A stretch of DNA of 64,000 bases from Candidatus Omnitrophota bacterium (GTDB lineage: Bacteria > Ratteibacteria > UBA8468 > B48-G9 > JAFGKM01). Both the position numbers and the translations under genes were made by a program. How positions within the stretch are numbered: the first letter of the stretch is position 1; each line of letters starts with the position of its first letter. Below, in pieces: positions 10,657-54,587 of this stretch. The notes beneath the pieces were generated by a model. That model ran no database searches. It was not told where the DNA came from and saw only the letters and a program-made list of their open reading frames with translations. The stretch is from contig JAFGKM010000047.1 of NCBI GenBank assembly GCA_016928555.1, positions 462-64,461 on the forward strand, given 5' to 3'.

Positions 10657-11716
10657 ACGAGGCCGGTTTTACTGGTTTTCCAAGAATATCGGAGGGAAGC
10701 ATTATCGGGAGTCTACCGGTTGCGCGGAACGCAATGAAGCAGAGGTGTTCTACGCTAAATGGTTGCTGAAGCATAACCATGTGCCTCCACAGACAGAGAA
10801 TTTATACCAGCGACCACAGGCGAGTTCTTTAACGCTTGAGCAATTGGTGGACAAGTGTTTCAAGCATCGTTCCTTCAGCAAGCTTGCTCTGCAATCTCAA
10901 AGAAGGTACAGAACTTCTGCAAAACTCTTCTTGGACAAGTTAGGCAATCTCCCGGCAGACGAGATTACTACCGATATGCTGGAGGATATTCAGAAAGACC
11001 GCCTAGCAGAAGGGATAAATACATCCACCATAGACAGAGATTTTGCTTTTTTACGCCATCTCTTTAACTGGGGGATTGACCATGAATATTGCAAAAAGAA
11101 CCCAGTTAAAAACTGGCTCTTTGAAAAGGCAAACAATGCTCGGACCAGGCGGCTTTCTGATGAAGAAGAGAATCTGATCCTTGCGGAAATGAAGAAAGAA
11201 AACCTTAACGGGTTTTTAACCATAACCGTTTTGGGACTATACACCAGGGGCAGGAGAGCGGAAATAACAAACCTGCGGCGCAAGAATATAGACCTTGAAG
11301 AGAGAACGATTACATACGAGGTGACGAAAAACAAGACGCCTCGGGTTGAGCCTCTCTGCCAAATTGCCTATATGACACTTGAAGCCTGGCTAAAGGACAA
11401 AAACTTCTCTCCTCAAGACTATATTTTCCCGGGCATCACACCTGACAGAGTAACCAGAATCTTCATCCGGATAACCAGGAAGCTGGGTATAAAAGATCTC
11501 CGGTTTCATGACACCGGAAAGACTTTTACGAACCGGCTTATAGAAGCTAAGGCAGATATCTACAGCGTGAGCAAGCTTTCTGGACATAAGAGCATTTCGG
11601 TTCTGGAGAAGTACTATCTTAATCCCAGAATACTGCCCTCTCTCAGTGAAGAAGTGGCAAAACTGGACAGGAATCTGTCACAATTTGTCACAATTTTGGA
11701 GTCCGGGAAGAAATGA
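10643..11716 (+). CDS. int: tyrosine site-specific integrase (phage integrase family)
   Basis: N-terminal RGRFYWFS...KHYRESTG arm-binding-like region. C-terminal catalytic LRFHDTGKTF (HxxR) and GHKSISVLEKYY (catalytic Tyr). RBS AAGGAGG 7 nt before ATG 10643 (track start 10637 is TTG). Adjacent to the tRNA-Thr 3' end. Confidence 0.85.
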   Translation: MALFKRGRFYWFSKNIGGKHYRESTGCAERNEAEVFYAKWLLKHNHVPPQTENLYQRPQASSLTLEQLVDKCFKHRSFSKLALQSQRRYRTSAKLFLDKLGNLPADEITTDMLEDIQKDRLAEGINTSTIDRDFAFLRHLFNWGIDHEYCKKNPVKNWLFEKANNARTRRLSDEEENLILAEMKKENLNGFLTITVLGLYTRGRRAEITNLRRKNIDLEERTITYEVTKNKTPRVEPLCQIAYMTLEAWLKDKNFSPQDYIFPGITPDRVTRIFIRITRKLGIKDLRFHDTGKTFTNRLIEAKADIYSVSKLSGHKSISVLEKYYLNPRILPSLSEEVAKLDRNLSQFVTILESGKK

Positions 11717-13045: not shown

Positions 13046-13120
13046 TTTGTTTACATCTTTATTAACTTGTAAAGAAAGTATATCTCTTTGTTTACATCTT
13101 GTCAAGATTGTAAAGAAAGT
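13046..13120. repeat. two tandem imperfect 34-bp repeats (TTTGTTTACATCTT...TTGTAAAGAAAGT) in the fic upstream region
   Basis: Unit 1 13046..13079 and unit 2 13087..13120 share TTTGTTTACATCTT at the 5' end and TTGTAAAGAAAGT at the 3' end. Located between the fic start and the IS3 left end. Confidence 0.5.
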
Positions 13121-13185
13121 GTGAGCTTTACCTGATTTTATAGACACGAAGGGTATAGTAAAATAAGAGAGAAAAGAGGCCCTTC

Positions 13186-13446
13186 GTGAAAAGATATGAT
13201 GAAGAGTTTCAGAAAGACGCGGTAGAGATGCTGATTAACGAAGACCGGTCTTTAAGGCAGCTTGCCAGAGAGTTGGGAGTAAGTCCCCAGACATTACGCA
13301 ACTGGAAAGACGTATATCTGGGCAAGAAAGCCCGTCAATCAGGCAAAGAGATAGCAGATGTGAAGCAGACGTATGAGGAATTGCGGAAGTTAAAGGTAGA
13401 GAACGCTACCTTAAAGCGGCAGCGGGACATCTTAAAAAAGCATTGA
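13186..13446 (+). CDS. IS3-family transposase OrfA (HTH)
   Basis: VKRYDEEFQKDAVEMLINEDRSLRQLARELGVSPQTLRNWK typical IS3/IS911 OrfA. Ends at slippery A6G (13434..13440) followed by TGA. Confidence 0.75.
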   Translation: MKRYDEEFQKDAVEMLINEDRSLRQLARELGVSPQTLRNWKDVYLGKKARQSGKEIADVKQTYEELRKLKVENATLKRQRDILKKH

Positions 13447-15868: not shown

Positions 15869-16606
15869 CTACAATATCCAATTCCGCCGGATATTTCTCA
15901 AACTCATCTGGAAAAGAATAGTACAGAAAGCTATCAGCATAAAAAAATTAAAAGCAAGCGGCATATGTCCCGCCCGCTGGAAAGAAAAATGCAAGATATC
16001 CGCTCCGTATGTAAGCGGCATAATGTAGGAAAGCGGCTTTAGAAAAACGGGCAGTTGTTCTATTGGAAAAAACAGTCCGCAAAGGAAAAGCATTGGGAAA
16101 CGTATGAAATTGGAAAAGGTCTGGGCTTCAAAAACTTCGCTTACAGACACTGCTACGAAAAGTCCGAGAAAAGTGGAACTTATCGCTATGAGAACTATTG
16201 CAGGTATAAGAGTTATCCAGTTAACGCCTGAAAGGTCTGTGAAGAAAGCAGCCATAATAACGGGGACAAAAGCATTGACTATGCCGAATATTATGGCGCC
16301 GGTAGTTTTGGCAAGCATAAGCAGTTCAAGTGAAATCGGCGCCAGAAGAAGACGCTCAAACGACCGTCCTTTCTTTTCAAAAGTTATGGTTACGGAGAGC
16401 AGGCTTGTCGTGCCGAATAAAACGGAAATGGCGACAACGCCGGGGAGAAGTCCGGGTATGCTGTCAAGACCCTGCCCCGACCTCATGAAAAACATTCCGG
16501 TCCATGCAAGAGGGAAAATAATTCCCCAGCTTATGTTGGGCGGTTTAAGATAATAGGACCGGGTATCTTTCAGCAGTATGCTCCAGAATGCCGTGTTTGA
16601 CTTCAT
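15869..16606 (-). CDS. ABC-2 type transporter permease
   Basis: 245 aa, 6 hydrophobic helices. Overlaps upstream ATPase gene by 4 nt. Confidence 0.7.
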   Translation of the reverse strand: MKSNTAFWSILLKDTRSYYLKPPNISWGIIFPLAWTGMFFMRSGQGLDSIPGLLPGVVAISVLFGTTSLLSVTITFEKKGRSFERLLLAPISLELLMLAKTTGAIIFGIVNAFVPVIMAAFFTDLSGVNWITLIPAIVLIAISSTFLGLFVAVSVSEVFEAQTFSNFIRFPMLFLCGLFFPIEQLPVFLKPLSYIMPLTYGADILHFSFQRAGHMPLAFNFFMLIAFCTILFQMSLRNIRRNWIL

Positions 16607-17589
16607 TTACTATTATCTCCCTTTTCCTTTTCTCCCTTCATCGCGTGGGCTTCAATACCCGTTATCTCAACAAACACGTCTTCAAGCGACGGCCTTATCT
16701 TGCGGGCTTCGGACACCTCTGCCCCGCGGTCTTCCATAAACTTTACAAAAGGCCCTATGAAAATGGGCTTTCCGGATTCAATTCTGACGGTAGCCCCAAT
16801 CAGCTCGCGGCATTTGATTCCAGGAAATTCTTTCTCCATGGCACTGGCAAGCCCTTCAATATCTTTTGAAAGAGCAAACTGGACGATGTGTCGTCCTTCC
16901 GTCAGGCGCATGAGGTTGTCGGTTGTGTCCGTGCGGACTATTTTTCCGGAAACTATAAAAGCGATCCGCCGGCAAAGCCTTTCCGCTTCTTCTATATAGT
17001 GCGTGGTTAAAAATATGGTTGTTCCGCCTGCATTCAAATCGTAAATCAACTGTCTTATCTGTCTGGCGCTGGCAACGTCTATCCCTGTTGTCGGCTCATC
17101 CAGAAACAGTATGGGCGGCGAGTGGACAATGCCCGCGGCAATGGTGAGTTTTCGCTTCATCCCCTTGGAATATCTGGCGAATTTTCGGTTTGCGGCGTCG
17201 GCAAGTCCAAACTGCTCCAGCAGTTGGCGGGCGCGGCTTTCCCTGCTTTGTCTTTTCATTCCGTAAAGGGCGCCGCAAAAAGCAAGATTTTCATAACCGG
17301 TAAGTTCGGGATAGAGGTTGCTTTCATCGGGGACGATTCCCATGAGATGCTGGGCGGCCTTCGGGTTTGCGGAACAGTCTATTCCCTGGATGCGTATGGA
17401 GCCTTTGTCCGGCCGTGCGAGTCCGGTAAGCATATTTATGGTTGTTGTTTTTCCCGCACCGTTCGGGCCCAGAAAACCGAATAACTCCCCTTCACAGATA
17501 CTGAAATCAACGCTGTCTACCGCCTGCACTTCTTCGAATTTCTTGCTCAACCCTTTTACTCTAATTATGCTTTTGGCGACTACATCCAT
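16603..17589 (-). CDS. ABC transporter ATP-binding protein
   Basis: Walker A GPNGAGKTT, signature YSKGMKRKL, Walker B ILFLDEPTTGID. Confidence 0.85.
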   Translation of the reverse strand: MDVVAKSIIRVKGLSKKFEEVQAVDSVDFSICEGELFGFLGPNGAGKTTTINMLTGLARPDKGSIRIQGIDCSANPKAAQHLMGIVPDESNLYPELTGYENLAFCGALYGMKRQSRESRARQLLEQFGLADAANRKFARYSKGMKRKLTIAAGIVHSPPILFLDEPTTGIDVASARQIRQLIYDLNAGGTTIFLTTHYIEEAERLCRRIAFIVSGKIVRTDTTDNLMRLTEGRHIVQFALSKDIEGLASAMEKEFPGIKCRELIGATVRIESGKPIFIGPFVKFMEDRGAEVSEARKIRPSLEDVFVEITGIEAHAMKGEKEKGDNSK

Positions 17590-23139: not shown

Positions 23140-23245
23140 TTCACCCACCTCCTTTATCCCGAACCGACGTTTTTTGTTGTTGCGAGCCCCGTTTCTTTGG
23201 GACGCGGCAACCTCAACCTTTCGCCCTCTTTTGAGGGGTCTGGAT
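23140..23245. repeat. repeat family copy B (partial; upstream of zinc-ribbon gene 22870..23139)
   Basis: CCTCCTTTATCCCGAACCGACGTTTTTTGTTGTTGCGAGC...CGGCAACCTCAACCTTTCGCCCTCTTTTGAGGGG. Left arm plus internal hairpin CCTCAA...TTGAGG, which is a compensatory variant of ATCTCAA...TTGAGAT in copy D. Confidence 0.5.
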
Positions 23246-23420
23246 TTATCGCTTTTCACTTGATTAGCTTTCCAAGTGAGAAATTTATGATTTTGTTTCT
23301 ATTATATTTAAAAATAATAGCAGGTTTTACGGTTTTTTTCAAATAACCCTGCCGCAGTGAATTTGACAAGCTCGGAAGTTTCGTAATAACATTTTAAAAA
23401 ATTAAGGCGAGGAGGTAAAT

Positions 23421-28786: not shown

Positions 28787-29118
28787 CTCCGGCGGTAGGA
28801 TTCGAACCTACAACCTTGCGGTTACAAGTACCCCCGAATTACTTCAGGGCTTGGACTATCTCTTCATCCTTTCCGAATTTTTTGGATTGGGATGTCGGGC
28901 GCTTCCCCGTTACCTGGAAAACAGGTACCGGGTACTCCATTTCTGGATAGTCTCTGCACCTTCCATTTTTTTGAAACAAATGGCTTGGCTCAGGATTGTC
29001 CGCCAGCTTTTCTTTTGTCTGATGGATTTCCCTGAATTCACCCGATTTTTCAACCACGATTTCTCGTGGAAGCTGCAACTGCTCACAGCCGCTTGCTCCA
29101 CCGTTGAGCTACGCCGGA
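28787..29118 (-). tRNA. tRNA-Asn(GUU) gene interrupted by a 260-nt group I intron between anticodon positions 35 and 36; exons 29118..29085 and 28824..28787
   Basis: 5' exon TCCGGCGTAGCTCAACGGTGGAGCAAGCGGCTGT and 3' exon TAACCGCAAGGTTGTAGGTTCGAATCCTACCGCCGGAG. Spliced product is a 72-nt cloverleaf with U1-A72, G73 and anticodon loop CUGUUAA as in E. coli tRNA-Asn. CCA is not encoded. Confidence 0.75.
28825..29084 (-). ncRNA. group I intron (IC3-like, tRNA-Leu(UAA)/tRNA-Ile intron family core), no ORF
   Basis: Intron RNA GAGCAGUUGCAGCUUCCACGAGAAAUCGUGG...CAGGGAAAUCCAUCAGACAAAAG...GACAAUCCUGAGCCAAGCCA...GGAAGGUGCAGAGACUAUCC...GAAGAGAUAGUCCAAGCCC...GUACUUG. It carries P7 halves GACUA and UAGUC, a P1 pairing GGCUGU with GCAGCU (U.G at 5' splice site), a P2 hairpin CCACGA-GAAA-UCGUGG, and a terminal G. 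Confidence 0.75.
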
Positions 29119-29169: not shown

Positions 29170-29290
29170 CCCTTGTTTTGTCATTGCGAGCGCAACAAGC
29201 CGAAGCCACGAGCGAAGCTTGGCGGGAAGCAATCTAAGTAGATTGCCGCAGTTGCAAAAAACGCTCCTTCGCAATGACAAGTTGGGAAGT
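29170..29290. repeat. palindrome-flanked intergenic repeat family, copy A (between fmdB-like gene and tRNA-Asn)
   Basis: Terminal inverted repeats TTGTCATTGCGAG (29178..29190) and CTTCGCAATGACAA (29267..29280). Internal hairpin GCAATCTA-ag-TAGATTGC. Shares arms and flank with copies at 23140, 45082, 46674 and 48174. Confidence 0.6.
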
Positions 29291-42602: not shown

Positions 42603-43526
42603 TTAATGTTCTCTATCATTTATGAAATAAAGGTATTCCGAAGCCGCAATTGCCGCCTTTGCGCCCTCGCCGCATGCGATTATAATCTGTTTTTTGTATA
42701 CATTTGTTACGTCCCCCGCGGCAAACAGGCCGGGAACAGAGGTCTTAACGGAACAATCCACTATTATTTCTCCCCATTCATTCTTTGCGGCGCCGGCCGC
42801 AATGCCGGAATTGGGAACCGAGCCTATTTCAACCATAACCCCTTCCGCGGCAATTTCTCTTTCCGTTCCGCCGGAATTTTTTATTCTGATTCCGTTTACA
42901 AATTTATCGCCGTATATTTCCGTTATTGCGGCGCCGGTAATTACCTCGGCATTCCCGTATTCCGCAAACTTATCGGTCAGTATCCTGTCTGCGGAAATAT
43001 AAGCCAGTTTTTCTATGAGATAAACCCTGTCTGCAATCCTTGCCATCTGGAGAGCTGCTTCCAATCCGGCATTCCCCCCTCCTATAACCGCCACTTTCTT
43101 GCCGGCAAACAAGGGGCCGTCGCACGTTGCACAGTAAGTAACGCCCCTGTTCTTAAATTCCTTCTCTCCTGGAACGGAAAGCTCCTTCGGCTTTCTGCCC
43201 GTGCATACAATAACCGTTTTGGCGGTGTACTCCTTTTTTTCCGAAGATACGGTAAAAACATCGCCGGATTTAATTATACCCGCAACCTTTTCGCCTTCGT
43301 TTAACTCTATATTGAATTCTCTAAGGTGGGCGGCAAATTTTTCGGCAAGTTCGGGGCCTGTAATATACTGGTGCCCTACATAATTTTCAACGTCGCCTGT
43401 CCAGAGAGTCTGCCCTCCCACGTCCATTGTCAACATGGCAAAACTTACCTTCTTTCTTGCCAGATAAATCCCTGCGGTTATCCCCGCAGGCCCTCCGCCG
43501 ACTATTATGGATTCGTAAACCGTCAT
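42603..43526 (-). CDS. trxB: thioredoxin-disulfide reductase
   Basis: GGGPAG FAD motif, redox-active CATCDG, NAD(P) motif GGGNAG. Confidence 0.85.
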   Translation of the reverse strand: MTVYESIIVGGGPAGITAGIYLARKKVSFAMLTMDVGGQTLWTGDVENYVGHQYITGPELAEKFAAHLREFNIELNEGEKVAGIIKSGDVFTVSSEKKEYTAKTVIVCTGRKPKELSVPGEKEFKNRGVTYCATCDGPLFAGKKVAVIGGGNAGLEAALQMARIADRVYLIEKLAYISADRILTDKFAEYGNAEVITGAAITEIYGDKFVNGIRIKNSGGTEREIAAEGVMVEIGSVPNSGIAAGAAKNEWGEIIVDCSVKTSVPGLFAAGDVTNVYKKQIIIACGEGAKAAIAASEYLYFINDREH

Positions 43527-43759
43527 ATTCCGAGTTCTTCTTTTATCGCTTCCCTGTCGAAACCTATTATTATCCTGCCGCCTATATCGGTTACCGGAAC
43601 GCCCATCTGCTCGGACTTGTTCATCATTTCTTCCCTTTTTGCGGCATCAGTGCCAACGTCAAAAGATTCATAGGAGATGCTGTTGGCATCGAGAAAATCC
43701 TTTAACATTCTGCAGTAAGGACAGCTTGAAGTTGAATAAACCTTGACTTTTTTCTGCAT
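43523..43759 (-). CDS. glutaredoxin-like protein (NrdH/Grx family)
   Basis: MQKKVKVYSTSSCPYCRMLKDFL with CPYC active site. The longer track ORF lacks support. Confidence 0.7.
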   Translation of the reverse strand: MQKKVKVYSTSSCPYCRMLKDFLDANSISYESFDVGTDAAKREEMMNKSEQMGVPVTDIGGRIIIGFDREAIKEELGI

Positions 43760-43761
43760 TT

Positions 43762-44376
43762 TTATTTTCCTTTCAGTTTTTTTGATATCACAGTTATCCG
43801 CCTTCCGAGTTCTTCCGCTATCTTCAGGTCGGTTGAATTCGGCGGAACGGAAGCATCGGTGCCGACGACTGCAGACGGCCCGTAAGGCGTCCCGCCCGAT
43901 TTTGACTCCATAAGCTCTTTTACCGAATAGGGGACGCCTACAATCACAGCCCCGTGATGCATCAATGTAAACATCATTGATATAAGAGTGGTCTCCTGTC
44001 CCCCGTGCATGGTAGCCGTACAGCAGAAAAAGCCCGCCGGTTTGTTCACCAGCGAACCCTTCGTCCACAGGTTTCCGGTCGCATCAAAAAAATTTCTCAA
44101 CTGCGAGCACATGTTCCCGAACCTTGTGGGACTCCCCACTATAATCCCGTCTATTTCTTCAAGCTCTTCCAATTTTGCTACAGGCACATCCTTCTGCAGT
44201 TTTTTCGCTTTCTTTATTCTGTCATCCCCTTCAATTACGCCGGCCGGCAAAAGCTCCTGCACGGTGCGCAGGACCGGCGCTCCACCTTCTTTTTCAATGC
44301 CCGAAACTACAGCCTGCGCCATACTGTATGTATTGCCTAACATGCTGTAATAAAGGACCATTACCCTTGTTTTCAT
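43762..44376 (-). CDS. wrbA: NAD(P)H:quinone oxidoreductase WrbA (flavodoxin-like)
   Basis: MKTRVMVLYYSMLGNTYSMAQAV...GSPTRFGNM is the WrbA signature. RBS GGAGGG. Confidence 0.7.
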   Translation of the reverse strand: MKTRVMVLYYSMLGNTYSMAQAVVSGIEKEGGAPVLRTVQELLPAGVIEGDDRIKKAKKLQKDVPVAKLEELEEIDGIIVGSPTRFGNMCSQLRNFFDATGNLWTKGSLVNKPAGFFCCTATMHGGQETTLISMMFTLMHHGAVIVGVPYSVKELMESKSGGTPYGPSAVVGTDASVPPNSTDLKIAEELGRRITVISKKLKGK

Positions 44377-44954
44377 GTTTTCCCTCCGGCAATAAGCATG
44401 CCTATTTCTTCAGCCCTTTTAAGACAATCCGCGTGATTGTTTACCGCACCTTTTTCATCCGTAAGGGAACAGAAAAGTTCGTGTTTATAGGAAGCGCCGG
44501 CCGTTGCAAAAAAGTTCTTAATTATTGCCTTTGAATTATCAAAGAAATCCTTCCTGTCCGTTCCGGCGACGCACAAAAAAACTCCGCTTTTCCTTTTCAC
44601 TATTTTATATGTCTTGTAAAAGTATAAGCCGAGCCACTGGCACTGAAACCTGTCAATCATCATTTTTGTCTGGGCGGACAGACTTCCGAAAAAGACGGGA
44701 GAGGCAACAACGACGGCATCCGCCTGTTCGAGCGCGGGATAAATCTTCTGCATATCGTCTTTAATTTTGCACATGCCGTCCTTTGTAATTTCCGCACATT
44801 CCTGGCACGGTACGAACTTCATGGAATTAAGGACAAATTTTTCGGTTTCCGCACCGTTTTTTTGCGCGGAACCAAGGCACAGGTCCAGCAGAATCTCGCT
44901 GTTTCCTCCTCTCCTCGGACTGCCCAGAATCCCGAGCACTTTTATCTTGGACAT
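44373..44954 (-). CDS. NADPH-dependent FMN reductase family flavoprotein (iron-sulfur flavoprotein-like)
   Basis: MSKIKVLGILGSPRRGGNSEIL, Cys cluster CQECAEITKDGMC. Confidence 0.6.
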   Translation of the reverse strand: MSKIKVLGILGSPRRGGNSEILLDLCLGSAQKNGAETEKFVLNSMKFVPCQECAEITKDGMCKIKDDMQKIYPALEQADAVVVASPVFFGSLSAQTKMMIDRFQCQWLGLYFYKTYKIVKRKSGVFLCVAGTDRKDFFDNSKAIIKNFFATAGASYKHELFCSLTDEKGAVNNHADCLKRAEEIGMLIAGGKT

Positions 44955-44955
44955 A

Positions 44956-45081
44956 TCATCTCTGTTCTTTCATCATCTCGCCGCAGCAGTACTTGGGCTC
45001 ATTCCCCGTTTTCCCGCATTTTTTACACTCATAGACTTTCCCTTCGTCCTTTTTCTTGCTTCCGCAGCAGCATTTGCACAT
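44956..45081 (-). CDS. small cysteine-rich protein (41 aa, 9 Cys), not in ORF track
   Basis: MCKCCCGSKKKDEGKVYECKKCGKTGNEPKYCCGEMMKEQR. RBS GGTAAAGGAG. Preceded by repeat copy E; first gene of the flavoprotein-grx-trxB unit. Confidence 0.5.
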   Translation of the reverse strand: MCKCCCGSKKKDEGKVYECKKCGKTGNEPKYCCGEMMKEQR

Positions 45082-45190
45082 TTGTGTCACTCTCCTTTAC
45101 CCCGTACCGGCGCATTTTGTCGTTACGCGCATTCCGCAGGAATCTCACTCCTCGCAAAAACAGGCAGTAAGGGGTTATTATTTATATCTT
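45082..45190. repeat. repeat family copy E (diverged; immediately upstream of small Cys-rich gene)
   Basis: CTCCTTTACCCCGTACCGGCGCATTTTGTCGTTACGCGC...GGAATCTCACTCCTCGCAAAAACAGG...AAGGGGTTATTATTT. Confidence 0.5.
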
Positions 45191-45241
45191 TCCATGCATT
45201 TAATGCTCACTCCAATTTACCAAGATTTATTGCCGCAACCC

Positions 45242-45724
45242 TTATTCCTGCATGTCGTCAAGCAGATTCATAAGGTCATCTTCGTGTTCAATTTCATCCT
45301 TGAGAATCTCCATAACCATGTAAAAGGATATTGAATCTTTATCCTTCAGGGATTCGCTCAGCTTTTTATATACGGTTATGGCGCATTGTTCACCCTTTAT
45401 GTTTTGTTTCACTACAGGTTTAACAGCCGGATCTTCAGGAGCGTCATAACCGCAGTTTGTAAGCTTATACCAATCCTCGGGTTTAAGCACAGGCGTTCCG
45501 CCAAGCTGTAAAATCCTGTCCGTAATCATCCCCGCATGCCTGAGCTCATCTCCCGCGTGTTCCGTCAACTCGGCCACTACCTGCCCTCTCATCTGTCCCG
45601 CTACAACCTTGGAGCCAATCCAGTACTGGTAGTAAGCAAGCCACTCGTCCGACAATGCTTTGTTAAGCATCTCAATAATCTGCTTAACATCGCCCTTAAT
45701 CAATTCTCTTCCTTTTCTTTCCAT
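45242..45724 (-). CDS. ferritin-like / Dps family protein
   Basis: ELTEHAGDELRHAGMITDRILQLGGTP resembles the Dps iron-site helix. RBS AAGGAGGGG. Confidence 0.55.
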   Translation of the reverse strand: MERKGRELIKGDVKQIIEMLNKALSDEWLAYYQYWIGSKVVAGQMRGQVVAELTEHAGDELRHAGMITDRILQLGGTPVLKPEDWYKLTNCGYDAPEDPAVKPVVKQNIKGEQCAITVYKKLSESLKDKDSISFYMVMEILKDEIEHEDDLMNLLDDMQE

Positions 45725-45737
45725 TTACCCCTCCTTT

Positions 45738-46112
45738 TCAAATTTTTAATTCCCCCTCCCATAAACCGTGTACGTTGCAGTAGGAAGCCGCGTATAAAGT
45801 TCCGCTTTTTCCGGTTTTAAAGGTTAATACGGCTTCAGGCAGGGAATAAACCGTGCTTGTATCGGCGCCTTCCGTCGAAGCGCCGTGGGACGTAAACTCA
45901 ACCTTGCCTGTCTGATAAGGGAATTTTCCCCCTTCGGGAAGAAAATAAAGCTCTATCCATGCGATATGATGCGCAGTCGTGTTGGGATGAGGTATCTCTT
46001 TCCCGACAGATACTTTTACCTTAACTCCTTTCTCCCCGTCTCTCTCAAGCACCTCCATTAGGGGTACGTGCTTCTCCTTTGCCCAGTCTCCGCTCTGAAA
46101 CAGTCCTTTCAT
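45738..46112 (-). CDS. sor: superoxide reductase (1Fe neelaredoxin/desulfoferrodoxin family)
   Basis: AKEKHVPLMEV (EKHVP hallmark), C-terminal YCNVHGLWEG (Cys ligand). Track start 46121 is GTG; ATG 46112 with RBS AAAGGAGGTG. Confidence 0.75.
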   Translation of the reverse strand: MKGLFQSGDWAKEKHVPLMEVLERDGEKGVKVKVSVGKEIPHPNTTAHHIAWIELYFLPEGGKFPYQTGKVEFTSHGASTEGADTSTVYSLPEAVLTFKTGKSGTLYAASYCNVHGLWEGELKI

Positions 46113-46193
46113 TGTATCCACCTCCTTTGCCCGGAATCACGCATTGTTTCCCTTTCAAATCAATGGAATCCGATAGGGCCTTTTTATAATCTT

Positions 46194-46673
46194 TTATTCT
46201 TTCGCAAATCTTTCTTTCATCTTGGAAAGCCTCACAAAATGGCTTCTTTCTTCATCAATTATCTTATCCATTATTTTGTGCTGTGTTTCGGGAACGATAT
46301 CCTTCGTCTCAAGGTAATACATTATGGAATCGAGCTCCCGCCTGATTCCGAAATCCAGGGCTTTTACGACTCCTCCCGCCGTTTCCAGCTCTCTTTCTAT
46401 CTCCGGAGGGAAAACGAGCGTATCTGCGTACGATTTAAGGTACTGGAAATACTCGCCCGGATAGGTTTCGGAAGGCTCGTAATTTGCTATCCTGCCCACC
46501 ATATCCTCAAAAATCTTTTTGTGTCTTGCTTCTTCATCGGCAAGAAACGTAAAAAGGTCATTCACTTCCTTTTCAGAACTCTTTTCGGCAACTTTCCTGT
46601 AAAAACTTTCCCCGTTCTCCTCAATCCTTATGGCAAACTGGAATATCTCGCTTACATCAAAGAATACGGCCAT
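46194..46673 (-). CDS. rubrerythrin family diiron protein
   Basis: EEARH and EERSH ExxH motifs. Start at ATG 46673 with RBS AGGAGG; the track ORF is extended through repeat copy C. Confidence 0.65.
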   Translation of the reverse strand: MAVFFDVSEIFQFAIRIEENGESFYRKVAEKSSEKEVNDLFTFLADEEARHKKIFEDMVGRIANYEPSETYPGEYFQYLKSYADTLVFPPEIERELETAGGVVKALDFGIRRELDSIMYYLETKDIVPETQHKIMDKIIDEERSHFVRLSKMKERFAKE

Positions 46674-46800
46674 CTCTCCTCCTTTACCCCGAACCGAAGC
46701 ATTTTGTCGTTGCGAGCGCCTTGTGCGCGTCAATCTCAACCTTATTTTGAAATTGCTTCGTCGTTCCACTTCTGCAATAACAAGCAATTAGGGGTTTAGA
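46674..46800. repeat. repeat family copy C (immediately upstream of rubrerythrin-like gene 46194..46673)
   Basis: CTCCTTTACCCCGAACCGAAGCATTTTGTCGTTGCGAGCGCCTTGTGCGCGTCAATCTCAACCTTATTTTGAAATTGCTTCG...TCTGCAATAACAAGCAATTAGGGGTTTAGATTTT. About 90% identical to copy D. Confidence 0.6.
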
Positions 46801-46802
46801 TT

Positions 46803-47987
46803 TTATTTTAACAGATTAAGCTGTTTGTGTTTTTCCGCTATTGTTTCAGCCAGATTTTCAAGCTTATTGAAATCGGATTCTAAAGGATACCCGTTAACCA
46901 CGACCGGTTCTAAAATTTCAATATTGCGCGAAGGCATCATCTCCGTAATTGATTTTACCATACTGCCGCCCCATCCGAAAGAGCCGATGATAGAAACAAA
47001 CCTCGTTTTAGGCCTGAGGATTTTGAAAAGATAGGCGGCATAAACCGCCGAAGGATGGGGACCGGACAGTACTGTAGGAGTACCGAGAACCATGGTAGCG
47101 GCGTCCACAAGAGCGATTGCCAGTTCTCCAATATCGGCGCCCGTAAGGTTATAAGGTTTCACCGCAATGCCTTTTTTTATCAGAGAATCCGCAAAAAAAT
47201 CAACCATTTTTGCGACACTGCCGTGCATTGAGACGTAAGGGAGTACCACTTCGTTTTTAACTCTGTCCGAAGTCCAGTCTTCATAAGCTTCCATTATAAA
47301 ACCCGGTTTGTCGTACACCGGCCCGTGACTCGGAGCGATAATTTCAATATCCAGTTTTTTTAAAACCTCCAGGTGTTTTTTTATGTTTGAGCGGAAAGGC
47401 ATCATAATCTCCGCATAATAGCGTTTTGCGGATTCGTGAATTTTTTCATTGCATGAACTGTAAAATTCGCTTGCCGCAAGATGGGAGCCGAAAAGGTCGC
47501 ACGGGAAAAGCATCTTATCCTCAATATCGTAAGTGACGATAGTTTCCGGCCAGTGAACCCAAGGCATATGGAAAAATTTCAGCTTTCTGCCGCCTATTGA
47601 TACAATTTCTTCATTTTCCACTTTAACACACCTGGTTTCGGGAACGAGAAGAAGTTTTTTCAGAAAATCGGCGCCTTTTTCGCTTGCCATAACCTTTGAA
47701 CCCGGGTATTGTTCAAGAACCATAGGTATGCTTCCGGAATGGTCCTGTTCCGAATGATTTGAAACCACGTAGTCAATTTTCTCTATCCCCAGAGACTTAA
47801 GCGCGGAAAGAAATTTATCCGCCTTTACCGGGTCGGAGGTATCAATCAGTACATTCTTTTCATCCTTTATAAAATAGGCGTTATATGTCGTGCCGTCCGG
47901 CAAAGGTATAAGCTCGTCAAAAAGCCTCCTGCTCCAGTCGTTCATTATTATTCCGTAAACGCCCTTTTTAATTTCCCTGATAATCAT
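46803..47987 (-). CDS. flavodiiron protein (rubredoxin:oxygen/NO oxidoreductase; metallo-beta-lactamase plus flavodoxin domains)
   Basis: HSEQDHSG diiron motif, C-terminal flavodoxin-like domain. RBS GGGAGG. Confidence 0.8.
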   Translation of the reverse strand: MIIREIKKGVYGIIMNDWSRRLFDELIPLPDGTTYNAYFIKDEKNVLIDTSDPVKADKFLSALKSLGIEKIDYVVSNHSEQDHSGSIPMVLEQYPGSKVMASEKGADFLKKLLLVPETRCVKVENEEIVSIGGRKLKFFHMPWVHWPETIVTYDIEDKMLFPCDLFGSHLAASEFYSSCNEKIHESAKRYYAEIMMPFRSNIKKHLEVLKKLDIEIIAPSHGPVYDKPGFIMEAYEDWTSDRVKNEVVLPYVSMHGSVAKMVDFFADSLIKKGIAVKPYNLTGADIGELAIALVDAATMVLGTPTVLSGPHPSAVYAAYLFKILRPKTRFVSIIGSFGWGGSMVKSITEMMPSRNIEILEPVVVNGYPLESDFNKLENLAETIAEKHKQLNLLK

Positions 47988-48002
47988 CCGGCCTCCCGTA
48001 TT

Positions 48003-48173
48003 TCAGAACTTCCCGTTTTCTTTTTCAAACTGGTCTTTGCCCGCCCCGCATTCGGGGCAAACCCAGTCTTCCGGCAAATTTTCAAAGCTTGTACCCGGAG
48101 CAATGCCGTTATCAGGGTCTCCCTTCGCAGGGTCGTATATGTATCCACATACCGTACAAATATATCTGCTCAT
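48003..48173 (-). CDS. rd: rubredoxin
   Basis: [15 protein letters not shown]...[13 protein letters not shown], two CxxCG knuckles. Strong RBS AAAGGAGG. Confidence 0.85.
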
Positions 48174-48303
48174 AAAATCCTCCTTTACCACGAACTTTCG
48201 CATTTTGTTATTGCGAGCGCCTTGTGCGCGGCAATCTCAACCTTATTTTGAGATGGCTTCGTCTTCGCCTCGCAATGACAAACAATTAGGGGTTTTGATT
48301 TTG
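48174..48303. repeat. repeat family copy D (immediately upstream of rubredoxin gene 48003..48173)
   Basis: Arms TTGTTATTGCGAG (48204..48216) and CTCGCAATGACAA (48268..48280) form a perfect 13-bp inverted repeat with one G.U position. Internal hairpin ATCTCAA-ccttatt-TTGAGAT. Flank ACAATTAGGGGTTTTGATTTT. Confidence 0.6.
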
Positions 48304-48337
48304 CTTTAAATATTTTCCGCGTAAACACTTTCCTTTT

Positions 48338-48748
48338 TCAGTTCTTCCTGCAGTTTTTGCACAGTCCTTTAAGGTAAAGATGGTGTTCATCGACAGAATG
48401 CCCGTCAATTTCCTTCTCGTCCAGCAGACTGCATTTGTGGAAGATATCATAAAGCTCTCCGCATTTTTTGCATTTGAAATGGAGATGAGCGCCTTCCGAA
48501 AAATCGTACCTGACTTCCTTTTCCTCTACGGTAACTTGAGAAATGATTTTCTTATCGACAAAAACCTTTAACGTATTGTAAATCGTCGTTTTTGAAAGAG
48601 TCGGGATTCTGGAAGAAAGATATCTATAAATATCCTCCACAGTGGGATGAGTCCTGTTCTTCACGAGATACTCAAAAATTTTCATCCTCTGATATGACGC
48701 CTGAATGCCGTTATCCTCCAATGTCTTCATAATATCTGCCTGTTTCAT
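48338..48748 (-). CDS. Fur family transcriptional regulator, PerR-like
   Basis: Fur-family winged helix N-terminus. C-terminal HLHFKCKKCG...CKNCRKN (2x CxxC structural Zn). Sits at the head of the oxidative-stress cluster. Confidence 0.75.
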   Translation of the reverse strand: MKQADIMKTLEDNGIQASYQRMKIFEYLVKNRTHPTVEDIYRYLSSRIPTLSKTTIYNTLKVFVDKKIISQVTVEEKEVRYDFSEGAHLHFKCKKCGELYDIFHKCSLLDEKEIDGHSVDEHHLYLKGLCKNCRKN

Positions 48749-49380
48749 TTGAAAACCTCCTTATTGAAAAAATACCAGAAAACAAAATCCAGATGCGGCA
48801 TCGGTATTTTTATTTCTCCGGCAAACTTTTTCATGAATTCTTCCGTCATAATGTATTGTGAGGCCGTCATCGCATTTGGTATCTTTTTTATAACCCCCGC
48901 CATAAAAAGCCCTCTCAGTATATGCCTGTCAAGAATTGCAAGCTCTCCGCCTTTGCCAATATTGCGCAGGAAATGGCTTGCTTCCTTGTATCCCATTCCT
49001 TTTACGTTATCCGCAATATGTTTCCTTAAAACCTTTTCATCTTTTTCTTCTGAAAGCATATCAAGAAAGGAGCTCTTGCCGTTGAAGAATTTACTGCGCG
49101 CTTCAACGATATATCCTGCCTTGTTATTCCTGAACCTAACTCCGCAGAAATTTTCTGAAATCTGTTTCTCTGTCCCTTCATGCAAAATTCCGTTTGCGGA
49201 AAGGCGCTCTACATTGTCCCAGCAAACCCGCGCTTTGCACTGGGGAGTGAGCAGGCAGAAAAAAAATTCTTTTTCTATCTTATCCTTCGTATCGTTCTTT
49301 TTAAACTGCCTCAGCCTTTCATCTACCTGCGGTTTTATGTTTTTGTGCACTCTTTTCAAACTTGTAATAATTCCACTCAT
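48745..49380 (-). CDS. N-glycosylase/DNA lyase, Ogg2-type 8-oxoguanine DNA glycosylase
   Basis: About 210 aa. HhH-GPD region GMGYKEASHFLRNIG...LAILDRHIL. Confidence 0.55.
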   Translation of the reverse strand: MSGIITSLKRVHKNIKPQVDERLRQFKKNDTKDKIEKEFFFCLLTPQCKARVCWDNVERLSANGILHEGTEKQISENFCGVRFRNNKAGYIVEARSKFFNGKSSFLDMLSEEKDEKVLRKHIADNVKGMGYKEASHFLRNIGKGGELAILDRHILRGLFMAGVIKKIPNAMTASQYIMTEEFMKKFAGEIKIPMPHLDFVFWYFFNKEVFK

Positions 49381-49435
49381 AGATAAAGTATACCTTAAAA
49401 TAAAAATAGAGCAAGTTTTACGCTAAAATCAAAAC

Positions 49436-54412: not shown

Positions 54413-54587
54413 TTCATCCTCCTTTACTCCGAACTCCCCAACTTTATTGCTTACAAAGTGAGGAGCTTGGATTTTATCTTCCGCAGTTAAAAATTTAACT
54501 TTTTATTATAAATCAAACATCCTTTAAAATCCATTTTATTTCTGTTATTCCAAATTCCGACATAAGTAATTTGTTTATATGGTAGCC

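Follow-up and report, generated by a model that had tools for sequence, protein, structure and literature searches.

A putative generic 5′ leader with a Shine–Dalgarno tail precedes oxidative-stress and housekeeping genes in one clade of Candidatus Omnitrophica

Copies of a repeated, palindrome-bearing intergenic element stand before several genes in a 64,000-nucleotide (nt) stretch of DNA from a Candidatus Omnitrophota bacterium (GenBank contig JAFGKM010000047.1, positions 462 to 64,461; hereafter the window), among them genes of a cluster for the detoxification of oxygen and reactive oxygen species (ROS) that includes a gene for a PerR-like regulator. An earlier note on this DNA had described three of these copies, termed D, C and E, and had read them as a shared cis-regulatory module of an oxidative-stress regulon, either an operator with promoter or a structured 5′ untranslated region (UTR), rather than randomly scattered miniature transposable elements with inverted repeats (MITEs). 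Of these options, our analysis upholds the structured 5′ UTR as opposed to MITE scatter: 31 of 31 bona fide copies lie in sense orientation, their tail ending 3-10 nt before the start of an open reading frame (ORF), and a helix between the head and the tail of the element covaries. On balance, we favour the view that D, C and E, together with copies before the genes for superoxide reductase (SOR), pyrophosphate-dependent phosphofructokinase (PPi-PFK) and a B-box protein, belong to a lineage-specific generic 5′ leader of one Candidatus Omnitrophica clade, structured and co-transcribed with the gene that it precedes, which would aid translation initiation and would carry the palindrome as selfish cargo.

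Direct reading and a three-way alignment bore out the three minus-strand copies, D (48174..48303), C (46674..46800) and E (45082..45190), E being diverged and D and C close relatives. The kinship of D and C stands, whereas the identity of about 90% once given for it does not: they are 88% identical over 86 nt, 87% over 38 nt and, when gaps are included, 81% over the full module. With up to three mismatches allowed, CTCGCAAYRACAAAATGC has five matches in the window against 0.26 expected and GGTTCGGGGTAAAGGAGG has seven against 0.02, numbers so far above expectation that chance is excluded as the source of the similarity; AAACCCCTAATTG, formerly singled out as a conserved flank, is not enriched as such (two matches against 2.9 expected) and forms part of a broader head motif. 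Nor are the copies confined to three 5′ regions. These three are real, but the tail precedes six genes in the window, those for rubredoxin (D), a rubrerythrin-like protein (C) and a Cys-rich ORF (E) and, previously overlooked, those for SOR, the B-box ORF that is paired with a photolyase gene, and PPi-PFK. The spacer of five nucleotides before ATG likewise proved not to be fixed, as the distance after GGAG varies from 5 to 10 nt.

Three parts make up the mosaic leader: the A-rich head (ACAAAATCATAAACCCCTCAC), an interior that varies and a tail (GTTCGGGGTAAAGGAG) that is almost invariant. In the information profile the head is an A-rich run closing in CCCC-T-CAC, and the tail reads GUUCGGGG-UAAAGGAG, its final bases forming a strong Shine–Dalgarno (SD) sequence; the full module in relatives takes the form AAAATCATAAACCCCTCAC..CTTGTCATTGCGAGG..GCAATCTCA-loop-TGAGATTGCCGCG-hairpin-CTCGCAACGACAAAAAGCGTCGGTTCGGGGTAAAGGAG-N-ATG. 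Interiors hold zero, one, two or three units of a palindrome that resembles repetitive extragenic palindromic (REP) elements, or other hairpins. Two inverted units are present in D, in C and in eleven other leaders (type A; alignment A2), one unit in the copy near 23 kb of the window and in those of loci L023, L018 and L017, and three units in one leader. Mini leaders of 45-60 nt that lack the palindrome precede the PFK and SOR genes in the window and, elsewhere, rd (locus L146), secG, xseB, hpf and rbr (L151/L153 and L141). The 13-bp arms and the ATCTCAA/TTGAGAT hairpin of the earlier note are exactly the two helices that an inverted doublet of the REP-like unit makes.

All six window leaders lie on the minus strand. 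Leader D, between the perR-like gene and the rubredoxin gene (ATG at 48173), has its head AACCCCTAA at 48286-48294, its REP-like doublet at 48205-48281 (arms 48269-48281 and 48205-48217; inner hairpin 48248-48254 / 48234-48240) and its tail GTTCGTGGTAAAGGAG at 48180-48195, with the SD at 48179-48186. Leader C, between fprA and the rubrerythrin-like gene (ATG at 46673), has its head at 46788-46796, its doublet at 46704-46783 and its tail GTTCGGGGTAAAGGAG at 46679-46694. The 13-bp inverted-repeat arms that had been attributed to every module hold for D, but the 5′ arm of C is degenerate (TTGTTATTGCAGA), and E, which precedes a 41-amino-acid (aa) Cys-rich ORF, retains only decayed palindrome remnants (about 45112-45160) between its head (AACCCCTTA, 45168-45176) and tail (GTACGGGGTAAAGGAG, 45092-45107). 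The fourth copy inside the cluster, the mini leader before the SOR gene (46113..46190), consists of a head-like AAAAAGGCCCTATC (46171-46185) and the tail ATTCCGGGCAAAGGAG (46122-46137), and the mini leader before the PPi-PFK gene (54413..54470) of the head AAGCTCCTCAC (core 54462-54465) and the tail GTTCGGAGTAAAGGAG (54419-54434). The leader before the B-box zinc-finger ORF and the DNA photolyase gene (23140..23295) contains a single REP-like unit, with an outer head (ATCATAAATTTCTCAC, 23276-23291) directly after a TATAAT box and the tail GTTCGGGATAAAGGAG at 23149-23164. Tandem leaders were also seen, at about 6700-6800 in L039/L068 and about 11255-11300 in L034, in which a tail-like GGGGTAAA(A/G)CAGAGAG is directly followed by the next head, (A)TAAAATCATCAACCCCTCAC.

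Species-representative genomes were scanned with a degenerate tail pattern, and a looser tail search added further leaders. The pattern scan returned 19 loci, 16 of which came from five related uncultured Candidatus Omnitrophica metagenome-assembled genomes (MAGs); in four of these MAGs the tail occurs on several contigs, in the fifth on a single one. Two pattern scans of viral contigs gave no match to the leader. Copies from different genomes are as alike (81-89%) as copies inside one genome. The genes behind the leaders in the related MAGs and metagenome contigs, as assigned by Pfam, encode components of transcription and translation (RpoA, L7/L12, ribosome recycling factor and the hibernation factor HPF), metabolic enzymes (enolase, formate-tetrahydrofolate ligase, glutamate dehydrogenase and an IMPDH-like protein) and a range of other proteins (FabD, SecG, XseB, LemA, Band 7, PTS-EIIA2, FGGY kinase, a TIM-barrel isomerase and DUF2961), to which inspection by eye added S13, L32, glutamine synthetase and a 31-aa basic peptide. 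The last of these is a conserved, highly basic ORF (MPCGKKRKR.KIKTHKRKKRLA.LRHKKRKR) with a leader before it in two species (L002, 6964-7056, and L016, 7686-7778, both on the minus strand); it has no Pfam match, and its product could be a small ribosomal-type protein.

RNAalifold, applied to the thirteen two-unit leaders, paired ACCCC of the head with GGGGU of the tail and formed the two palindrome helices. Variant heads meet variant tails, CUCC pairing with GGAG in the PFK leader, CUUU with AGAG in the rbr leader of L141 and UUUC with GGGA in the 23-kb copy. In a hand-built pseudo-alignment of 25 distinct head/tail pairs (A3), in which heads were assigned by flank similarity only, 92.8% of the cells pair and changes on both sides occur at four of the five pairs; the covariation score was reached by none of 500 shuffles, and slid registers paired at 58% or less. 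Twelve of the paired cells are G-U, for which the antisense equivalent is an A-C mismatch, and these cells favour the mRNA-sense strand for the helix. Covariation is absent, on the other hand, from the palindrome arms: none of 31 pairs was compensatory in RNAalifold, the copies being too similar. The element shows the sense orientation, the fixed position and, in a hand-built pseudo-alignment, the covarying helix by which a structured 5′ leader is recognized. Rfam 15 models run over the whole window at gathering score returned only a group I intron and a tRNA, relaxed searches of 44900-48400 (E up to 5) only chance-level snoRNA and thermometer matches, and searches of ten related loci, mini leaders and REP arrays included, nothing relevant; resemblances to K-turns, T-loops, attC sites and sigma-54 elements, considered by our own reading of the sequence, were dropped as the motifs did not fit.

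Averaged over 32 leaders, the SD is predicted to be unpaired with a probability of 0.82, which drops to 0.60 once the upstream part is shuffled (Wilcoxon p ~1e-6, a value inflated by the relatedness of the leaders), as would be expected of an upstream part that forms its structure internally and does not engage the SD. In the orthologous ptsN leaders of two species, the ~55 nt ending at the ATG differ at two positions (~96% identity) and the interior is scrambled, whereas the adjacent coding sequences show many more differences by eye, at an estimated identity roughly in the mid-80s per cent. The conservation of the ptsN tail and the trend in SD accessibility point to selection on the leader itself.

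We propose that the leader and its downstream gene share a transcript, which would start at a promoter just ahead of the leader or, where the leader is an intercistronic spacer, would be that of the operon. CCCC of the head would then pair with GGGG of the tail and close the interior into a self-contained folded domain, next to which the SD would stay single-stranded. The outcome may be that translation starts strongly whatever the context and that the mRNA segment downstream is protected, as by a 5′ stabilizer or insulator. The interior tolerates cargo, which in D and C is the inverted doublet of the ~35-nt REP-like unit. Given the predicted accessibility of the SD, its strength (AAAGGAGG) and the kinds of genes served, an insulating, stabilizing and co-transcribed leader appears to be the best-supported reading.

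Several observations weigh against it. The predicted SD accessibilities of D and C are 0.46 and 0.42, no better than those of shuffled controls, GGAGG being a second pairing partner open to the head; that these copies switch between the two head pairings is conceivable but unsupported. Folded as single sequences in the sense direction, D, C and E do not exceed shuffles significantly in stability (z -1.65, -0.38 and -1.86). The heads in A3 were assigned by hand, the informative PFK case has an alternative inner partner, and four to five variant tails are uncompensated. As the leaders are homologous copies, the statistics for SD accessibility and covariation overstate their independence. Finally, four of the six window leaders lie in the ROS cluster, which would also be expected locally if the element were specific to a regulon; this probably reflects high expression of these genes in an anaerobe and not common regulation.

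The palindrome also exists apart from the leader. Its unit of ~35 nt has the form GTCATTGCGAG-[variable hairpin]-GCAATCTC and the complement thereof, and a stand-alone REP-like doublet without an SD tail (TTGTCATTGCGAA ... CTCGCAATGACAA; 29173..29285, minus strand) establishes its independence within the window. When metagenomes (loci L021-L140) and IMG/VR viral contigs (loci L154-L273) were scanned with the palindrome alone, without the SD, it was found at at least 120 loci in the former, most of them doublets or tandem arrays lacking head and tail, and in at least 120 of the latter, where it sits between phage structural genes; the Omnitrophica tail accompanies about one in ten palindrome loci among the matches listed. 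One abundant carrier is a relative of Aminicenantes, with a GAPDH ~90% identical to proteins named Aminicenantes, so the family spans Omnitrophica, Aminicenantes and many viral contigs. The ~2 Mb of fetched loci contain 578 units, a density biased by the choice of loci for their matches. The heptamer GCGAAGC, which as DNA forms a very stable mini-hairpin, is found in many 5′ units. For leader D the antisense strand gives the better fold (z -4.0; sense, -1.65), and this, with the lack of covariation in the arms, fits a DNA-level or selfish origin of the palindrome, which is probably selfish. Full-text literature searches with the arm sequences returned unrelated primer matches only, and searches on Omnitrophota intergenic repeats gave nothing relevant and no description of the palindrome family.

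Downstream of the stand-alone doublet we noted a tRNA-like gene interrupted by a group I intron (28790-29115, minus strand; Rfam RF00028, 96.5 bits, intron 28832-29094), with a T-arm GGTTCGAATCC near 28800-28812, at which ARAGORN makes no call; the doublet and a promoter-like site, TTGATT-N17-TATACT, lie just upstream of the gene.

By its architecture the palindromic unit appears closest to the REP elements and bacterial interspersed mosaic elements (BIMEs) of Enterobacteria and to REP doublets forming hairpins (REPINs), which are mobilized by REP-associated tyrosine transposases (RAYTs; PMC3116915, PMC3337134). Like these, it is a short imperfect palindrome of ~35 nt, present in many mostly intergenic copies and arranged in inverted doublets with a short spacer (in D, C, the doublet at 29173-29285 and the eleven type-A leaders); as in BIMEs, the mosaic has conserved linker motifs, occupies intergenic and intra-operonic sites and is likely to be co-transcribed as a hairpin. 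Unlike them, the unit is unrelated in sequence, its family occurs in at least two phyla and in viral contigs, inspection by eye brought no RAYT association to light, and the doublet here sits inside a larger leader that supplies an SD and always faces the downstream gene.

These likenesses raise the alternative that head, palindrome and tail together make up a selfish mobile element, non-autonomous and of the MITE or REPIN/BIME type, with an incidental SD, that persists where it is harmless and brings the host no benefit. We regard this as rather unlikely. It would account for the presence/absence polymorphism at orthologous junctions, for the equal similarity of copies between and within genomes, for the fit of the inverted doublet to the REPIN definition and for the occurrence of the palindrome across phyla and in viral contigs. 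It sits poorly with the strictly uniform orientation and start-codon distance of the copies, with the frequency of palindrome-free mini leaders, with a tail that, at orthologous sites, varies less than the codons next to it and with head–tail covariation that includes sense-strand G-U pairs. In addition, TIR-like (terminal inverted repeat) 13-nt arms are present, but no direct repeat (target-site duplication) is visible around the arms of D or C, filled and empty junctions being too diverged to place the ends of an insertion, and no Y1/RAYT-like ORF was seen between REP pairs in the ~2 Mb, where housekeeping or phage genes lie instead, as also in L044, on inspection by eye only and with no Y1 profile scan.

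The invariance of the tail admits a further explanation, namely that GUUCGGGGUAAAGGAG and the closing helix are the site of a lineage-specific trans-acting factor, such as an RNA-binding protein, a small RNA or an extended 16S 3′ end (pairing with GGGGUAAAGGAGG beyond CCUCC), that co-regulates a large post-transcriptional regulon of highly expressed genes. In its favour, the 16-nt tail is near-identical before more than 30 unrelated genes in at least five species, it is conserved beyond the needs of an SD alone, and additional conserved GUUC and UCAC stand beside the helix. However, homogenization among the copies would explain the identity of the tail equally well, no candidate factor was identified, and the sequence examined contains no 16S gene; we consider such a factor decidedly improbable as the whole explanation. 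A related and broader proposal, which we advance only tentatively, is that the leader is a portable initiation cassette (A-rich head, covarying CCCC/GGGG helix and invariant 16-nt SD tail) placed by the clade before roughly one gene in ten, core genes such as rpoA, eno and those for ribosomal proteins included, which spreads to new junctions, even splitting the overlapping fur and rd genes, serves as a landing pad for a cross-phylum, phage-borne palindrome and, as the invariance of the tail would imply, is read at GUUCGGGGUAAAGGAG by a protein or an extended rRNA 3′ end particular to the lineage.

Promoters offer a third alternative, in which the A-rich head of each leader would hold a promoter, its -10 box being AATCAT or TAAAAT, so that D, C, the SOR leader and E would head separate transcription units. 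In many copies a -10-like hexamer does stop 0-7 nt short of CCCC, the helix would lie at the very 5′ end of any transcript initiated at CCCC, and TTTACG-N16-CAAAAT in D scores 8/12. Yet 35 aligned upstream regions carry no -35 information and no conserved last T of a -10 box, and the bona fide promoters of the window are canonical (TTGnnn-N17-TATAnT). Furthermore, a sigma-70 and terminator scan of 42-49.5 kb placed no site in D, C or E and gave counts not above those of shuffles, and in promoter-proximal copies -10-like boxes lie upstream of the head at variable distances. A conserved internal promoter in the head, for which the 35 copies hold neither -35 nor -10 information, was rejected, a result that also counts against the operator with promoter of the earlier note; we judge promoters in the individual heads to be more doubtful still than a trans-acting factor.

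The ROS cluster itself (42603..49380, minus strand) comprises ogg, fur/perR-like, rd, fprA, rbr-like, sor, dps/ferritin, the Cys-rich ORF, FMN_red, FMN_red/WrbA-like, grx and trxR, followed after trxR by a second rubrerythrin-like gene and a 2-oxoacid:ferredoxin oxidoreductase. Pfam confirmed the gene content formerly assigned to the three units and the Fur-family gene, and the best NCBIfam match of the regulator is a PerR model, at 98.5 bits, under the model cut-off of 180. NCBI lists the exact FprA protein under a Candidatus Omnitrophica MAG. The 41-aa Cys-rich ORF (MCKCCCGSKKKDEGKVYECKKCGK..YCCGEMMKEQR; 44956-45081, minus strand), which has no Pfam or NCBIfam match, is conserved directly before the FMN reductase gene in L141, L145, L146 and L149. 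The cluster is syntenic and mostly tightly packed across Omnitrophica, with ogg-fur-rd-fprA conserved, and the only conserved promoter at its head is the sigma-70-like one of ogg-perR (49385..49415, minus strand; TTGCTC-N17-TATACT, 6 nt, ATG), which follows TTGnnn-N17-TATAnT in the relatives too. Its -10 box lies only 6 nt from the ATG in every relative examined (L141, L143, L145 and L150), which suggests that the ogg-perR transcript is leaderless; no conserved inverted repeat was evident by eye in this promoter in five relatives.

At the fur|rd junction, the site of D, the genes overlap or lie 0-2 nt apart in seven relatives that keep the regulator (L141, L143, L148, L149, L150, L151 and L153), which makes D a derived insertion. 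The spacer at this junction is unrelated in the closest relative, L147 (FprA 84% identical), and L146 has here a leader with the same head and tail, differing in its interior hairpins and in its junction with the fur stop codon. At fprA|rbr, the site of C, a head and a tail without the palindrome are present in L147, L151/L153 and L141, so the palindrome of C is later cargo in an older leader; this junction measures 13-53 nt and has no leader in L146, L143, L149 and L150. No leader was found in the fetched DNA of more distant Omnitrophica (L143 and L148-L150). The cluster may ancestrally have been one operon, ogg-perR-rd-fprA-..., driven by the conserved ogg promoter, with leaders added later at some cistron junctions and PerR having no special relation to them. 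In L148 a different repeat family of ~200 nt (ccattccgtcttttgtagttag..ttgcgag..tttatccctc) occupies three junctions of the ROS cluster (11170-11375, 13085-13445 and 15940-17000); repeats seem to gather preferentially where genes of this cluster meet.

It is against this background that the original proposal, an operator or redox-responsive cis-element of the adjacent PerR-like regulator within an oxidative-stress regulon, has to be set. The presence of four of the six window leaders beside the PerR-like gene, and of leaders at some junctions of the ROS cluster in relatives too, is what speaks for it. Fur/PerR boxes are AT-rich inverted repeats of the 7-1-7 / 19-bp type that overlap a promoter, whereas the arms here are 13 nt long, contain G and C, stand ~50 nt apart, do not overlap a promoter and belong to a repeat family shared with other phyla and phages; all that the leaders have in common with Fur boxes or the Bacillus subtilis PerR box (TTATAATNATTATAA) is a neighbourhood of a Fur-family gene and ROS genes. 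The remark that the module does not resemble the Bacillus PerR box was correct, as no TTATAATNATTATAA-like site with three or fewer mismatches occurs in 42-49.5 kb. Nor is the element restricted to a regulon: in relatives it precedes rpoA, rplL and other ribosomal protein genes, frr, eno, fhs and secG, and in the window PFK and the B-box/photolyase pair. Together with the absence of D from the orthologous junction of seven relatives that retain the regulator, this leaves the PerR reading unsupported and very improbable.

We place the generic leader between two known kinds of element, mosaic intergenic repeats and 5′ stabilizer leaders. Among the former, the Correia elements of Neisseria (CREE, Correia repeat enclosed elements; NEMIS, neisseria miniature insertion sequences) differ in that they make a TA target duplication, carry promoters at their ends and bind IHF and RNase III (PMC2649163). 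They share with the leader a length of ~100-150 bp, inverted repeats, sites beside many unrelated genes, a presence that varies between strains and, if the leader acts as we propose, co-transcription and an altered expression of the adjacent gene, but they supply no ribosome-binding site (RBS) and have no fixed orientation or start-codon distance. Of the latter kind, the aprE leader of B. subtilis, the cryIIIA STAB-SD and the 5′ UTR of E. coli ompA likewise combine a stem-loop at or near the 5′ end with a strong SD, predicted here to be accessible, before highly expressed genes. Unlike the leader, these are single-gene elements and form no repeated family over dozens of genes, nor do they carry mobile palindromes.

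For annotation, the case shows that intergenic similarity beside a regulator gene is no proof of a regulon; here it would have given a false PerR operator. It is unusual in bacteria for a single conserved leader to serve dozens of unrelated genes that are probably highly expressed, and as a natural, modular and insulating 5′ UTR that tolerates cargo this leader may record how operons gain intercistronic spacers. For an uncultured phylum it would provide a handle on expression: it could be put to use directly as a strong 5′ UTR/RBS, and its presence could mark genes with high expression.

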